A stretch of 64,000 nt of DNA from Escherichia coli (GTDB lineage: Bacteria > Pseudomonadota > Gammaproteobacteria > Enterobacterales > Enterobacteriaceae), in assembly GCF_009931435.1 (NCBI RefSeq), contig NZ_CP043414.1; one strand, given 5' to 3'. Under the pieces are notes generated by a model that was not told where the DNA came from, did not search any database, and was given only the letters and a program-made list of their open reading frames with translations. Positions 15,129 through 20,595 of the stretch are shown here, one piece after another (position 1 is the stretch's first letter; each line of letters starts with the position of its first letter). The position numbers were made by a program, and so were the translations under genes.

Positions 15129-16027
15129 TGGACTTTCCGCAGCAACTCGAAGCCTGCGTTAAGCAGGCCAACCAGGCGCTGAGCCGTTTTATTGCCCCAC
15201 TGCCCTTTCAGAACACTCCCGTGGTCGAAACCATGCAGTATGGCGCATTATTAGGTGGTAAGCGCCTGCGACCGTTCCTGGTTTATGCCACCGGCCATAT
15301 GTTCGGCGTTAGCACAAACACGCTGGACGCACCCGCTGCCGCCGTGGAGTGTATCCACGCGTATTCATTAATTCATGATGATTTACCGGCAATGGATGAT
15401 GACGATCTGCGTCGCGGTTTGCCGACCTGCCATGTGAAGTTTGGCGAAGCAAACGCGATTCTCGCTGGCGACGCTTTACAAACGCTGGCGTTCTCGATTT
15501 TAAGTGATGCCGATATGCCGGAAGTGTCGGATCGCGACAGAATTTCGATGATTTCTGAACTGGCGAGCGCCAGCGGTATTGGCGGAATGTGCGGTGGTCA
15601 GGCATTAGATTTAGATGCGGAAGGCAAACACGTACCTCTGGACGCACTCGAGCGTATTCATCGCCATAAAACCGGCGCATTAATTCGCGCCGCCGTTCGT
15701 CTTGGTGCATTAAGCGCCGGAGATAAAGGACGTCGTGCTCTGCCAATTCTCGACAAGTACGCAGAGAGCATCGGCCTTGCCTTCCAGGTTCAGGATGACA
15801 TCCTGGATGTGGTGGGAGATACTGCAACGTTGGGTAAACGCCAGGGTGCCGACCAGCAACTTGGTAAAAGTACCTACCCTGCACTTCTGGGTCTTGAGCA
15901 AGCCCGGAAGAAAGCCCAGGATCTGATCGACGATGCCCGCCAGTCGCTAAAACAACTGGCTGAACAGTCACTCGATACCTCGGCACTGGAAGCGCTAGCG
16001 GACTACATCATCCAGCGTAATAAATAA
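15128..16027 (+). CDS. ispA: Farnesyl diphosphate synthase
   Basis: Track ORF, 299 aa; two aspartate-rich motifs (IHDDLPAMDDDDLRRG, FQVQDDILD); start overlaps the xseB stop. Confidence 0.95.
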   Translation: MDFPQQLEACVKQANQALSRFIAPLPFQNTPVVETMQYGALLGGKRLRPFLVYATGHMFGVSTNTLDAPAAAVECIHAYSLIHDDLPAMDDDDLRRGLPTCHVKFGEANAILAGDALQTLAFSILSDADMPEVSDRDRISMISELASASGIGGMCGGQALDLDAEGKHVPLDALERIHRHKTGALIRAAVRLGALSAGDKGRRALPILDKYAESIGLAFQVQDDILDVVGDTATLGKRQGADQQLGKSTYPALLGLEQARKKAQDLIDDARQSLKQLAEQSLDTSALEALADYIIQRNK

Positions 16028-16051
16028 ACAATAAGTATTAATAGGCCCCTG

Positions 16052-17914
16052 ATGAGTTTTGATATTGCCAAATACCCGACCCTGGCACTGGTCGACTCCA
16101 CCCAGGAGTTACGACTGTTGCCAAAAGAGAGTTTACCGAAACTCTGCGACGAACTGCGCCGCTATTTACTCGACAGCGTGAGCCGTTCCAGCGGGCACTT
16201 CGCCTCCGGGCTGGGCACGGTCGAGCTGACCGTAGCGCTGCACTACGTCTATAACACCCCGTTTGACCAATTGATTTGGGATGTGGGGCATCAGGCTTAT
16301 CCGCATAAAATTTTGACCGGACGCCGCGACAAAATAGGCACCATCCGTCAAAAAGGCGGCCTGCACCCGTTCCCGTGGCGCGGCGAAAGTGAATATGACG
16401 TGTTAAGCGTCGGGCATTCATCAACCTCTATCAGTGCCGGAATTGGTATTGCGGTTGCTGCCGAGAAAGAAGGCAAAAATCGCCGCACCGTCTGTGTTAT
16501 AGGCGATGGCGCGATTACTGCTGGCATGGCGTTTGAAGCGATGAATCACGCGGGCGACATCCGCCCGGACATGCTGGTTATTCTCAACGACAACGAAATG
16601 TCGATTTCCGAAAATGTTGGCGCGCTCAACAACCATCTGGCGCAGCTGCTTTCCGGCAAGCTTTACTCTTCACTGCGCGAGGGCGGGAAAAAAGTATTCT
16701 CCGGCGTTCCGCCCATTAAAGAGCTGCTCAAACGTACCGAAGAACATATTAAAGGCATGGTAGTACCAGGCACGCTGTTTGAAGAGCTGGGCTTTAACTA
16801 CATCGGCCCGGTTGACGGTCACGATGTGCTGGGGCTTATCACCACGCTTAAGAACATGCGCGACCTGAAAGGCCCGCAGTTCCTGCATATCATGACCAAA
16901 AAAGGTCGTGGTTACGAACCGGCAGAAAAAGATCCAATCACCTTCCACGCCGTGCCTAAATTTGACCCCTCCAGCGGTTGCCTGCCGAAAAGCAGCGGCG
17001 GCCTGCCAAGCTATTCAAAAATTTTTGGCGACTGGTTGTGCGAAACCGCAGCAAAAGACAACAAGCTGATGGCGATTACCCCGGCGATGCGCGAAGGTTC
17101 AGGCATGGTCGAGTTTTCACGTAAATTCCCGGATCGCTACTTCGACGTGGCAATCGCCGAGCAACACGCAGTGACCTTTGCTGCGGGTCTGGCGATTGGT
17201 GGCTACAAACCGATCGTGGCAATTTATTCCACTTTCCTGCAACGTGCCTATGATCAGGTGCTGCATGACGTGGCGATTCAAAAGCTCCCGGTCCTGTTCG
17301 CCATCGACCGCGCGGGCATTGTTGGTGCTGACGGTCAAACCCACCAGGGCGCTTTTGATCTCTCATACCTGCGCTGCATTCCGGAAATGGTCATTATGAC
17401 CCCGAGCGATGAAAACGAATGTCGCCAGATGCTCTATACCGGCTATCACTATAACGATGGCCCGTCAGCGGTGCGCTATCCGCGCGGCAACGCCGTTGGC
17501 GTTGAACTGACGCCACTGGAAAAACTGCCAATTGGCAAAGGCATTGTGAAGCGTCGTGGCGAGAAACTGGCGATCCTCAACTTTGGTACGCTGATGCCGG
17601 AAGCAGCGAAAGTCGCAGAATCGCTGAACGCTACGCTGGTCGATATGCGTTTTGTGAAGCCGCTTGATGAAGCGTTAATTCTGGAAATGGCCGCCAGCCA
17701 CGAGGCGCTGATCACCATTGAAGAAAACGCCATTATGGGCGGCGCAGGCAGCGGCGTGAACGAAGTGCTGATGGCCCATCGTAAACCAGTACCCGTGCTG
17801 AATATTGGCCTGCCGGACTTCTTTATTCCACAAGGAACGCAGGAAGAAATGCGCGCTGAACTCGGCCTCGATGCCGCCGGTATGGAAGCCAAAATCAAAA
17901 CCTGGCTGGCATAA
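16052..17914 (+). CDS. dxs: 1-deoxy-D-xylulose-5-phosphate synthase
   Basis: Track ORF, 620 aa; thiamine-diphosphate motif [18 protein letters not shown]. Confidence 0.96.
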
Positions 17915-17939
17915 TCCCTACTCCACTCCTGCTATGCTT

Positions 17940-18085
17940 AAGAAATTATTCATAGACTCTAAATAATTCGAGTTGCAGGAAGGCGGCAAACGAGTGAAGC
18001 CCCAGGAGCTTACATAAGTAAGTGACTGGGGTGAACGAATGCAGCCGCAGCACATGCAACTTGAAGTATGACGAGTATGGCAGGA
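17940..18085. repeat. ERIC (IRU) element between dxs and yajO
   Basis: Contains gtgaagccccaggagcttacat and aagtaagtgactggggtgaacg, near-identical to the two halves of the ERIC imperfect palindrome (recalled ERIC primer sequences). Confidence 0.7.
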
Positions 18086-18093
18086 GTGGCAGC

Positions 18094-19068
18094 ATGCAAT
18101 ACAACCCCTTAGGAAAAACCGACCTTCGCATTTCCCGACTTTGCCTCGGCTGTATGACCTTTGGTGAGCCGGATCGCGGTAATCACGCATGGACACTGCC
18201 CGAAGAGAGCAGCCGTCCCATCATTAAACGCGCGCTGGAAGGCGGCATAAATTTCTTTGATACCGCCAATAGTTATTCTGACGGCAGCAGCGAAGAGATC
18301 GTCGGTCGTGCACTGCGGGACTTTGCCCGTCGTGAAGACGTGGTCGTTGCAACTAAAGTGTTCCATCACGTTGGTGATTTGCCGGAAGGATTATCCCGTG
18401 CGCAAATTTTGCGCTCTATTGACGACAGCTTGCGACGTCTCGGCATGGATTATGTCGATATCCTGCAAATTCATCGCTGGGATTACAACACGCCGATCGA
18501 AGACACGCTGGAAGCCCTGAACGATGTGGTAAAATCCGGGAAAGCGCGTTATATCGGCGCGTCATCCATGCACGCCTCGCAGTTTGCTCAGGCGCTGGAA
18601 CTGCAAAAACAGCACGGCTGGGCGCAGTTTGTCAGTATGCAGGATCACTACAATCTGATTTATCGCGAAGAAGAACGAGAGATGCTGCCGCTGTGTTATC
18701 AGGAAGGCGTGGCGGTGATTCCGTGGAGTCCGCTGGCGCGGGGACGTCTGACGCGTCCGTGGGGAGAAACCACCGCGCGGCTGGTGTCGGATGAAGTGGG
18801 GAAAAATCTCTACCAAGAAAGCGATGAAAATGACGCGCAGATCGCAGAACGGTTAACAGGCGTCAGTGAAGAACTGGGGGCAACGCGAGCACAAGTCGCG
18901 CTGGCATGGTTGTTGAGCAAACCTGGCATTGCCGCACCAATTATCGGTACATCGCGGGAAGAACAACTTGATGAATTGCTGAACGCGGTGGATATCACCT
19001 TGAAGCCGGAACAGATTGCTGAACTGGAAACGCCGTATAAACCGCATCCGGTCGTAGGATTTAAATAG
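18094..19068 (+). CDS. yajO: Aldo-keto reductase YajO
   Basis: Start moved to MQYNPLGKTDL with RBS caggag, giving 324 aa; the track's upstream start lies inside the ERIC element. Confidence 0.9.
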   Translation: MQYNPLGKTDLRISRLCLGCMTFGEPDRGNHAWTLPEESSRPIIKRALEGGINFFDTANSYSDGSSEEIVGRALRDFARREDVVVATKVFHHVGDLPEGLSRAQILRSIDDSLRRLGMDYVDILQIHRWDYNTPIEDTLEALNDVVKSGKARYIGASSMHASQFAQALELQKQHGWAQFVSMQDHYNLIYREEEREMLPLCYQEGVAVIPWSPLARGRLTRPWGETTARLVSDEVGKNLYQESDENDAQIAERLTGVSEELGATRAQVALAWLLSKPGIAAPIIGTSREEQLDELLNAVDITLKPEQIAELETPYKPHPVVGFK

Positions 19069-19076
19069 GAATCCAG

Positions 19077-19110
19077 GCCTGATGAGACGTGACAAGCGTC
19101 ACATCAGGCA
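19077..19110. repeat. REP-like palindrome between the convergent yajO and pgpA
   Basis: gcctgatgagacgtgacaagcgtcacatcaggc, a nested inverted repeat. Confidence 0.5.
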
Positions 19111-19121
19111 TCGGTGCACAG

Positions 19122-19640
19122 CTACGACAGAATACCCAGCGGCCAGTGATGACCAATAAAGTACAGGATGCCTGCGGAAATCACCCCGGCGACGATATCA
19201 TCTATCATGATCCCCATGCCGCCATGCACATTGCGATCAAACCAGCGGATCGGCCACGGTTTCCACATATCCAGAATACGGAAAATCACAAACCCGGCGG
19301 CGACCCACTGCCAGTCATTGGTCGGCAATGCCATGAGCGTGATCCACATGCCGATAAATTCGTCCCAGACAATGCTGCCGTGATCATGCACGCCCATATC
19401 TTTTGCGGTCTGATGACAAAGATAGACGCCAATACAGATCCCCAGCATGACTACCAGTGAATAGAGCTGCCAGGGCAAAAAGGTCATCAGATACCAGAAC
19501 GGAATCGCCGCCAGCGACCCCATCGTGCCTGGAACAATTGGGCTTAATCCACTACCAAATCCAACAGCAAGCAGATGCCACGGATTACTCAGCTTAAGGC
19601 GACTTTTCGCGACATCTTTATGGCGTGGCAAAATGGTCAT
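19122..19640 (-). CDS. pgpA: Phosphatidylglycerophosphatase A
   Basis: Start moved to [12 protein letters not shown], giving 172 aa; its 5' end overlaps the thiL 3' end by 23 nt. Confidence 0.9.
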
Positions 19641-20595
19641 ATCCTTTCCAGTCAAATGTGACAGGTTCGCCGTCACGAATAAAACAAAGCCCTTCGATAT
19701 CGGCAGTCATTTGCCCGATACAGGTAAACGGTACGCCCAGATGTCCGAGAGCCACATCCAGCGCGCCACGGTTAAGCTCTGGCACAGTGAAACACAACTC
19801 GTAATCTTCACCGCCAGAGAGCGCCCAGCGCAGCGCCTGTTCCGGCTCAACATGGCGAGAAAGCGCATCAGAAAACGGCAGCAATGCCAGGTCAATACGT
19901 GCGCCGCAGTCGCTGGCTTTCACGATATGCCCGAGATCAGAAATCAGACCGTCAGAGAGATCGATAGCTGAATTTGCCAGATCACGCAAAGCCTGTCCCT
20001 GTAAAATACGCGGCGACGGACGGAGATGACGTTTGATCAAGTAGTCCGCATCTTTAGCATCGGCAACCTGCAAACGGTTTTGCAATATCGCCAGCCCGGC
20101 GGCGCTATCGCCCGGTGTACCGGTCACATAGATCCAGTCACCCGGTTTCGCCCCAGAGCGCGTTAAGGCTCGTCCCATCGGAACAAAGCCGTGGATACCC
20201 AACGTCATTGATAATGGCCCACGCGTGGTATCGCCGCCAATAAGTTGCATATCGTAATAATTGAGAAGATCAAACAAACTGTCGCTGAAGGACTCAAGCC
20301 ACGCTTCATCGACGTCCGGTAAGGTTAATGCCAGCGTTAGCCAGGCCGGATCGGCCCCCATCGCTGCCAGATCGCTTAGGTTCACCGCCAGTGCTTTATA
20401 CGCCAGATCCGCAGGATCGATATCAGGGAGGAAATGGTTGCCCGCCACCAGCGTATCAGTGCTGATCGCCAGGGTCTGTTTCTCGGGGATATTGAGAAGT
20501 GCGCAATCGTCGCCAATGCCCAGTTCGACATCAAGACGAGAACTTCTTACACGGTCAAAATAACGGGCAATCAGGGAGAACTCGCCACATGCCAT
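19618..20595 (-). CDS. thiL: Thiamine-monophosphate kinase
   Basis: Track ORF, 325 aa; matches recalled ThiL. Confidence 0.94.

Follow-up and report, generated by a model that had tools for sequence, protein, structure and literature searches.

Stable hairpins of the REP/BIME families, of which the stabilizers of the malE–malF type are an example, serve as barriers at RNA 3' ends within operons. Two further groups of small intergenic repeats invite comparison with the locus considered here: the ERIC/IRU (RU-1) repeats of the Enterobacteriaceae (see Sharples and Lloyd, 1990, as well as Hulton et al., 1991; review, PMC2229807), and the Correia/NEMIS elements of Neisseria (reviewed in PMC2229807). 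We describe a member of the first of these two groups, located between the co-oriented genes dxs and yajO in a stretch of 64,000 nucleotides from Escherichia coli (contig NZ_CP043414.1 of assembly GCF_009931435.1), which stretch we call the window and number from its first letter. The gene yajO, encoding an aldo-keto reductase whose RefSeq annotation is alternative 1-deoxy-D-xylulose-5-phosphate (DXP) synthase, lies directly downstream of dxs. Our principal proposal, to which we assign a probability of roughly 0.6, is that the ERIC element would be a stabilizing extension of an already existing stem-loop that buries the yajO Shine–Dalgarno (SD) sequence, and at the same time a barrier at the 3' end of the upstream RNA.

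At the level of the family we found no difference from the ERIC/IRU repeats: the element is of some 127 bp, has central and terminal inverted repeats, folds as a long hairpin, is intergenic and cotranscribed, exists in multiple copies, is present or absent at the same site among strains, and has relatives with an internal insertion of about 70–80 bp. Specific to this copy are its nesting within an SD-sequestering stem-loop and, at its ends, an 'AT' ambiguity instead of a clear TA duplication. With the REP/BIME hairpins the locus shares a stable intercistronic hairpin just upstream of an abundant processed 3' end, along with Rho-dependent termination downstream; the sequence family is nevertheless unrelated, and the barrier here would consist of an ancestral stem plus an inserted repeat, whose protective action we infer. 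The Correia/NEMIS elements are likewise miniature, inverted-repeat, cotranscribed elements that give substrates of RNase III and can create promoters at or near their ends, but they belong to another family and another host; moreover, the −10 hexamer described below is a hybrid of the ERIC terminal AGTAT with the flank, and the double-stranded RNA (dsRNA) would be a duplex of sense with antisense and not the element's own stem. Since the ERIC family is already known and the same copy exists in the K-12 reference, the finding is, as a kind, a known one.

A full-length ERIC element between dxs and yajO

As the consensus of the ERIC core we took the reverse complement of the primer ERIC1R followed by the primer ERIC2, both of which sequences were confirmed verbatim in published papers. 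The two halves of the central palindrome that the initial annotation had quoted are indeed present and directly adjacent, with GTGAAGCCCCAGGAGCTTACAT at 17994–18015 and AAGTAAGTGACTGGGGTGAACG at 18016–18037, the orientation on the yajO sense strand being ERIC1R(rc)→ERIC2; together they agree with the primer-derived 44-mer at 42 of 44 positions (two mismatches), which 44-mer has one match within the window and none in 100 shuffles. The likeness is not limited to the core: the closest paralog, the ERIC between ybhI and ybhJ, is 92–94.5% identical over 127/127 nt, and any suspicion of a poor alignment over the full length can accordingly be set aside. Folded alone, the element forms a long hairpin, with a minimum free energy (MFE) of −58.8 kcal/mol and z = −6.96; the pairs of the terminal repeats are retained when a consensus fold is computed for ERIC copies of other loci and species, a structure of 36 pairs in which 5 show compensatory changes. 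We regard it as virtually certain that the dxs–yajO element is a full-length ERIC/IRU repeat.

The Rfam database has no ERIC family at its gathering thresholds, and at these it gave no match anywhere in the window. Below those thresholds, RF02818 (V_AS5, Vibrio antisense RNA 5) aligns at 17952–18075 over model positions 1–129 with 52.5 bits (E = 1.2e-9), a match well outside what chance would give. The covariance model is thus aligned over its full length; the score is under the gathering threshold of 96, so that by the Rfam rule the element is not a member of V_AS5; evidently, V_AS5 models a Vibrio ERIC-type repeat.

Within the species, a blastn comparison of the 127-mer with 5,425 genomes gave between 2 and 21 places in each (median 10), and the copies of Phytobacter and Kosakonia are 74–78% identical to that between dxs and yajO. 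The ybhI–ybhJ copy (positions 401–527 of the extracted loci L096–L099) reaches to within 2 nt of the coding sequence of ybhI and is variable from strain to strain, at 92.1–94.5% identity to the query; in one strain its core reads CCCCAGTCACTTAC, in contrast to the near-invariant dxs–yajO copy.

The limits of the element were fixed by an empty E. coli allele, which lacks exactly 125 bp: where the filled allele reads TTC-AT-AGACTC...GACGAGT-AT-GGCAGG, the empty one reads TTC-AT-GGCAGG. Taken strictly, the element occupies 17952–18076, and the 2-bp 'AT', which can be assigned to neither side, also permits 17954–18078, the unit being in consequence of 125–127 bp. The interval 17940–18085 given in the initial annotation does contain the element, although it is too wide by 12 nt at the left and by 7 nt at the right. 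For the ERIC family, TA termini and a TA target-site duplication have been listed (Table 1 of PMC2229807); here, the termini read TA...TA if taken as 17953–18077, but the ambiguous bases of the junction are 'AT', and TA is absent from the empty site, TTCATGG.

The dxs stop codon at 17912–17914 and the yajO ATG at 18094 agree with the RefSeq annotation of near-identical genomes. The SD sequence of yajO, AGGAG, is found at 18082–18086, and the right end of ERIC at 3–5 nt from it, so that the ribosome-binding site and the start codon are placed just beyond the element, as the initial annotation had stated. Three open reading frames that cross ERIC—18022–19068, which is a GTG extension of yajO, and 17946–18131 and 17918–18196 on the minus strand—were considered as genes and rejected, in being missing from both the empty alleles and the annotation.

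The conserved leader hairpin and its alleles

The dxs–yajO junctions were taken from 80 species of the Enterobacteriaceae (the 80 best YajO loci of species-representative genomes), which set includes Escherichia whittamii and E. albertii and was without E. coli, E. fergusonii, E. marmotae, E. ruysiae, and Salmonella. In 75 of the 80 species the spacer measures 54–85 nt (72 of them have 54–69 nt, two Atlantibacter have 75 nt, and one metagenome-assembled genome has 85 nt), from which prevalence we take the short spacer to be ancestral. With an ERIC, the spacer is of 186–187 nt in two Phytobacter species and one Kosakonia; with a long-form ERIC, it is of 257 nt in E. albertii, while E. whittamii is empty. 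The 85-nt spacer, from the metagenome-assembled genome UBA3516 of the Enterobacteriaceae (positions 1116–1200 of the extracted locus L040), retains both ERIC termini only, CTTACTCGAAGTAAGACGAGTAA, and is apparently an internally deleted ERIC stub at the position of the full ERIC in Kosakonia sp. S29.

When aligned (alignment A2), the spacers have a common layout: a C-rich tract, then CTCCTGCTATGCTTAA, then a variable loop, and then AGCAGGAGYG, which contains the SD. The 16-mer CTCCTGCTATGCTTAA, at 17926–17941 of the window, is invariant or nearly so in the spacers of some 76 species and is complementary to the downstream AGCAGGAGYG, for which pairing with the SD its first 8 nt suffice. We tested for covariation, in the 76 ERIC-less spacers of this alignment, a stem that we had defined, in which CTCCTGC pairs with the SD: 81.8% of the cells pair, versus at most 55% when the partners are slid, and the covariation score is 0.113 versus 0.073 in shuffles, a value reached by 0 of 500 of these. 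Three outer pairs of the stem, 23/76, 24/75, and 25/73, covary, with changes such as CG to UA and GC/AU/UA; furthermore, RNAalifold finds the same stem unaided. Covariation in the aligned spacers is thus shown to support a conserved stem in which CTCCTGC is predicted to pair with the yajO SD and so to sequester it. ERIC is located in the loop of this stem, and the same position is occupied in Phytobacter and Kosakonia, a second ERIC-bearing lineage; that insertion we regard, like the identity of the element, as shown.

The empty E. coli allele folds as a 16-bp hairpin of −28.1 kcal/mol, which structure represents 64% of the ensemble (z = −5.7). For the filled allele, the fold of 17915–18110 has −80.1 kcal/mol and z = −7.3: an outer stem of 19 bp (17921–17939 with 18073–18092) encloses the ERIC hairpin, and the last bases of ERIC join that stem. 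In Phytobacter the fold has the same nested arrangement. Because the SD is buried in the folds of both the empty and the filled alleles, the conserved arms would sequester it with or without ERIC, and the models accordingly suggest that the sequestration is the doing of those flanking arms and not of ERIC itself.

For the census within E. coli, a 601-nt query across the region was compared with 5,426 complete genomes. In 2,843 of these the query was covered to at least 80%, and in the remainder, whose aligned representatives were without exactly the 125 bp, the match ended at 79%; the census came to about 2,720 genomes with a short ERIC, 123 with a long form, and about 2,580 empty (approximately 50, 2, and 48%, respectively). 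In the long form, whose 123 genomes were counted with a locus-specific query, the right half of ERIC is interrupted by 78 bp of inserted sequence. K-12 has the short form, at which the MG1655 record annotates no feature. One YajO protein sequence was found with all three allele states, and an empty allele proved to be identical to filled alleles in its left flank (0/450 differences) and to differ at a single site from another filled allele in its right flank (1/450); the near-identity of these flanks means that the presence or absence of ERIC is not tied to the flank haplotype.

The 78-bp insert is itself structured. Its versions in E. coli 13P477T (positions 638–715 of locus L003) and in E. 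albertii (locus L007) are one substitution apart, and the insertion point is equivalent to about 18038/18039 of the window. Only 649 of the 5,426 genomes contain the 78-mer, as a rule in a single copy; in 120 genomes, at the dxs–yajO locus, its identity is 99% or more, and in 512, at another locus, 90–95%.

Where ERIC is present, its sequence hardly changes. Among nine diverse ERIC-bearing E. coli alleles, only two positions of the element vary, both at the edge of the 78-bp insertion; in the flanks of the same alleles, 81 sites out of 900 are variable, and so are 70 of the 300 third-codon positions (Fisher p = 1e-9 for the latter against ERIC). Between the window and K-12, 259 of some 6,800 sites are different, none of them within 17901–18078; in 2,838 genomes the 127-mer has an identity of 99% or more; and the comparison with E. 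albertii gives 5 differences in 127 positions (3.9%), against about 10% in the coding flanks. The element appears from these comparisons to be strongly conserved where present and yet to have been repeatedly lost, gained, or recombined, the latter since its presence is not tied to the flank haplotype. A similar conservation of E. coli ERICs was reportedly noted by Wilson and Sharp in 2006.

From about 15500 to 20000, which segment includes ispA–dxs–yajO and the genes just beyond, the window diverges from K-12 by 4–10% per 250 nt, the edges of the compared stretch differing by about 1% or less, and the 601-nt query is matched at 99% or more in only 18 of the 5,426 genomes; this patch looks like a recombinant or introgressed segment, though its ERIC and its spacer are identical to those of K-12.

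Transcription of both strands in K-12

Published data sets on K-12 show that both strands of the locus are transcribed, with an RNA 3' end at yajO +1, Rho dependence, and an antisense transcription start site (TSS). These data were placed on the window by the conversion: window position = 18094 − (U00096.3 coordinate − 438135), the U00096.2 coordinates being lower by 776 at this locus, which offset is consistent because the antisense TSS then falls on an A 7 nt after the −10 hexamer.

On the sense strand, Term-seq recorded a 3' end at 438135(−) with 38,352 reads (Adams et al., bioRxiv 10.1101/2020.07.18.207399), for which end the authors give a Rho score of 2.89 ('Yes') and an intrinsic-terminator score of 1.03, the threshold being 3.0. 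The same work lists a Rho termination region at 438058(−), records a read-through that increases with bicyclomycin, and reports that a lacZ fusion to the yajO '5' UTR + ORF' (untranslated region plus open reading frame) rises more than 2-fold in rhoR66S. Their fusions carry 'the entire 5' UTR', and the yajO cloning primer begins at TCCACTCCTGC, which is window position 17922, so that the region from 8 nt past the dxs stop, all of ERIC included, was treated as the yajO 5' UTR (bioRxiv 10.1101/2020.07.18.207399). The cautious suggestion of the initial annotation—that the element would belong to the yajO 5' UTR, or else be a structured spacer within the operon transcript—agrees with that clone, with the 3' end at yajO +1, and with the attenuation by Rho. 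ERIC is mentioned neither by Adams et al. (bioRxiv 10.1101/2020.07.18.207399) nor by Huang et al. (PMC7373196).

With respect to sense promoters, our scan for the sigma-70 consensus requires a −35 box and missed promoters of the extended −10 type; its sole match, at 17938–17967 (TTAAGA/AATAAT), is without support from any data. The supplements of SMRT-Cappable-seq and of Peano et al. contain no mention of yajO. An extended −10 consensus for sigma-S, KCTAYRCTTAA, has been quoted (PMC5650638), and is matched at 11 of 11 positions at 17931–17941; 0.2 matches per window are expected by chance, so that the pattern alone is not significant, and the weight of this candidate comes instead from the conservation of the motif in 76 species. 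The invariant GCTATGCTTAA may thus constitute a conserved yajO promoter, with starts predicted at about 17944–46, inside the loop. The remainder of the 16-mer, TATGCTTAA, fits the sigma-S −10 consensus and also opens a tiny ATG-CTT-AA... frame of variable length.

On the opposite strand, Cappable-seq recorded a TSS at U00096.2 437386(+) with a score of 38.7 (Ettwiller et al., PMC4782308); the part of that list that concerns the locus has plus-strand entries only, and is thus uninformative on a sense TSS. As placed by these entries on MG1655, the antisense TSS is an A, 7 nt downstream of TGCTATACT at the right junction of ERIC. This sequence is an extended −10 with a C at −13, and contains CTATACT, quoted as the −10 consensus of sigma-S promoters (PMC5650638). 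The hexamer complements the ERIC terminal AGTAT plus one flanking base, and the TGC complements the SD arm. In the window the hexamer is CATACT, because position 18079 is a G instead of an A; among the ERIC-bearing alleles sampled, TATACT occurs in K-12 and O111, and CATACT is the hexamer of the window, of BL21, and of the long forms, which second version would be the weaker variant. The same entries contain a second, weak K-12 antisense TSS, with a score of 1.6, at U00096.2 437489(+), corresponding to window 17964 (−), inside the left end of ERIC.

A sigma-S peak in chromatin immunoprecipitation sequencing (ChIP-seq), at 437329–437469, has been assigned to yajO (Peano et al., PMC4447067). That peak spans from −57 to +83 of the antisense start; between its end and the conserved sense motif, which it does not cover, there are 46 nt. 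An antisense Term-seq 3' end is given at 438373(+) (Adams et al., bioRxiv 10.1101/2020.07.18.207399), and dsRNA captured by p19 and dependent on RNase III forms a cluster, S-43, at U00096.2 437,393–437,579 (Huang et al., PMC7373196), which is classed as 'New AS' and is the fourth most abundant among the dsRNA clusters of coding genes (PMC7373196). Converted to the window, S-43 maps to 18060–17874 and is co-extensive with the antisense RNA, whose predicted fold is weakly distinctive (z = −2.3). The ERIC hairpin was also considered as the source of this dsRNA and is an unlikely one, since S-43 excludes the right arm of the hairpin, reaches 40 nt into dxs, and fits the antisense RNA. The features of the locus are collected in Table 1.

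Table 1. Features of the dxs–yajO junction in window coordinates, with the evidence for each.
Feature	Position	Strand	Evidence and remarks
ERIC/IRU element	17952..18078	+	Empty allele without exactly 125 bp; V_AS5 at 17952–18075; likeness to the ybhI–ybhJ copy
ERIC central inverted-repeat core	17994..18037	+	42/44 to the primer-derived consensus; inverted repeat I3 = 18000–13/18018–31
ERIC left terminal inverted repeat	17956..17977	+	Repeat I1, 22-nt arms, 77% complementary to 18055–18076
ERIC right terminal inverted repeat	18055..18076	+	Pairs with 17956–17977 (I1)
Left (anti-SD) arm of the leader hairpin	17921..17939	+	CTCCTGCT core invariant in 76 spacers; 19-bp outer stem in the 17915–18110 fold; repeat I2; covariation
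Right arm of the leader hairpin, with the SD AGGAG (18082–18086)	18073..18092	+	First bases are the last bases of ERIC; fold and covariation
C-rich, G-poor tract after the dxs stop, rut-like	17915..17929	+	C-rich in most aligned species; putative role, from the Rho dependence
Candidate extended −10 TGgCATAAT (17907–17915) over the dxs stop, then K-12 5' UTR start (17922)	17907..17922	+	Promoter predicted from sequence
Candidate sense sigma-S promoter TGCTATGCTTAA, within CTCCTGCTATGCTTAA	17930..17941	+	Fits extended −10 KCTAYRCTTAA; predicted start 17944–17946
Equivalent of the K-12 Term-seq RNA 3' end (MG1655 438135, minus strand)	18094	+	A of the yajO ATG, 2–5 nt beyond the foot of the composite hairpin
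Coding region of yajO (324 aa)	18094..19068	+	RefSeq annotation of near-identical genomes
Antisense promoter where ERIC meets its flank, as defined in K-12	18067..18082	-	TG 18082–81, −13C 18080, −10 18079–18074, TSS 18067; K-12 TGCTATACT, window TGCCATACT
Antisense RNA of ~212 nt, as defined in K-12	17856..18067	-	TSS, 3' end at 438373(+), and S-43; runs antisense through ERIC, the spacer, and the final 58 nt of dxs

Just past the yajO stop (19068), a weak Rfam match to naRNA4 was observed at 19076–19144 (−), with 25 bits and E = 0.28, and this stretch holds a palindrome GCCTGATG...CATCAGGC typical of REP elements.

Possible action of the element and competing explanations

According to the nested extension that we propose, ERIC would fold on itself and thereby close the loop of the leader stem, and its last bases would bring the outer stem from 16 bp to 19 bp. 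Transcripts reading through from dxs, or starting at 17922, would in that form keep the yajO SD buried; the poor translation of yajO would leave the RNA open to attenuation by Rho, and exonucleases would then degrade the RNA as far as the composite hairpin's foot, from which the abundant 3' end at yajO +1 would result. ERIC would thus act in the manner of a REP, as a nested stem extension and 3' barrier for the dxs-containing RNA and not as an independent switch. Transcripts from the candidate promoter at about 17944–46 would escape the sequestration, since in ERIC-bearing strains ERIC would be for them a 5'-proximal hairpin and the SD would be largely free. In addition, the right terminus of ERIC and its flank form an antisense promoter, as observed in K-12 and as predicted for the window strain, whose RNA of ~212 nt would cross ERIC into the 3' end of dxs, pair there with the sense RNA, and be cut by RNase III. 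Since strains do well without the element, its influence on yajO is probably a modest one.

Several considerations weigh against the nested extension. The sense TSS is indirect, coming from the cloning primer alone, and the 3' end at yajO +1 could stem from an endonucleolytic cleavage and not from the stalling of an exonuclease. All the transcript data are from K-12, whereas the flanks of the window strain are about 4–5% different and position 18079 is a G and not an A. The MFE structure has a low frequency in the ensemble (about 2%) for this 196-nt RNA, though the centroid keeps the same helices. The fact that some 48% of E. coli and most other species are without ERIC argues that its contribution is small or dispensable. 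Finally, any effect of ERIC on the expression of yajO or dxs, the influence on mRNA stability or translation mentioned in the initial annotation included, is one that we infer.

Of the competing explanations, the one that survives best—though we hold it to be unlikely—is that ERIC is a neutral passenger, a piece of selfish or relic DNA that landed in the loop, the only insertion-tolerant part of a tight spacer, with no measurable effect on dxs or yajO. That the element is missing from about 2,580 of the 5,426 E. coli genomes, and likewise from 75 of the 80 related species, is what such a passenger would lead us to expect, as are the independence of its presence from the flank haplotype (0/450 and 1/450 differences) and the burial of the SD by the ancestral stem even without ERIC. 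What is hard to reconcile with neutrality is the constancy of the element, in which no real variable site was found, against 23% of the flanking third-codon positions (p = 1e-9), and which differs from that of E. albertii by 3.9%, compared with about 10% in the coding flanks; moreover, ERIC alters the length of the stem and in K-12 supplies the −10 of a promoter.

Clearly less probable is a function centered on the antisense strand, in which the RNA from the junction promoter, bound by sigma-S, would lower dxs or yajO or both through RNase III, and ERIC would be kept for that promoter and for the body of the RNA. The strength of the TSS (38.7 among the Cappable-seq entries for the locus), the rank of the region as the fourth most abundant coding-region dsRNA cluster, and the centering of the sigma-S ChIP peak on the junction promoter all fit with that function, and the Rfam relative of the element, V_AS5, is described as an antisense RNA. 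Nevertheless, the −10 varies between TATACT and CATACT among ERIC-bearing strains, because of which variation the conservation of ERIC does not track the antisense promoter; in addition, the predicted fold of the antisense RNA is weakly distinctive at z −2.3, and the effect on the target is putative.

More doubtful still is the model reviewed for the cotranscribed ERICs of Yersinia (PMC2229807), under which a ribosome at the yajO binding site would open the ERIC hairpin, expose an RNase E site, and so destabilize the upstream dxs, depending on orientation. That model, with its precedent for cotranscribed ERICs (PMC2229807), is favored here by the distance of only 3–5 nt between the right end of ERIC and the SD; against it stand the burial of the SD itself by the conserved arms and the location of the mapped, Rho-linked K-12 3' end downstream of ERIC and not inside it. 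As for ERIC being an intrinsic, Rho-independent terminator or attenuator between dxs and yajO, the very stable hairpin and the strong K-12 3' end shortly after it might suggest as much, but we consider this scarcely credible and rejected it, since it is contradicted both by our terminator scan, which found no terminator-like site at ERIC and no U tract after the hairpin, and by the published values, namely an intrinsic score of 1.03 (below 3.0), a Rho score of 2.89, and a read-through that rises with bicyclomycin.

Returning to the nested extension, we would tentatively, and at slightly under even odds, go one step further and suggest that the insertion of ERIC rewired the conserved leader, through a longer occluding stem, a Rho-linked 3' end at yajO +1, and an antisense promoter at the junction, with strong purifying selection where the element was kept. 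In the literature searched we found no account of a conserved SD-sequestering leader with an ERIC in its loop, nor of a second ERIC in the same loop, such as is apparent in Phytobacter and Kosakonia, nor of a junction-born antisense promoter behind S-43 and the sigma-S peak. The points on the leader, on the second lineage, and on the antisense promoter are syntheses of sequence analysis with published data sets and not demonstrations.

What the element marks, then, is a conserved and apparently undescribed leader hairpin that is predicted to control yajO. This leader offers a plausible common explanation for a group of signals from K-12—the strong 3' end, the attenuation by Rho, the abundant dsRNA cluster, and the sigma-S ChIP peak—and, if true, the antisense promoter at the junction would explain both the 'New AS' cluster S-43 and the sigma-S peak that was assigned to yajO. 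The empty, short, and long states, for their part, constitute a natural allelic series over thousands of genomes, which series bears on the question of whether ERICs do anything.

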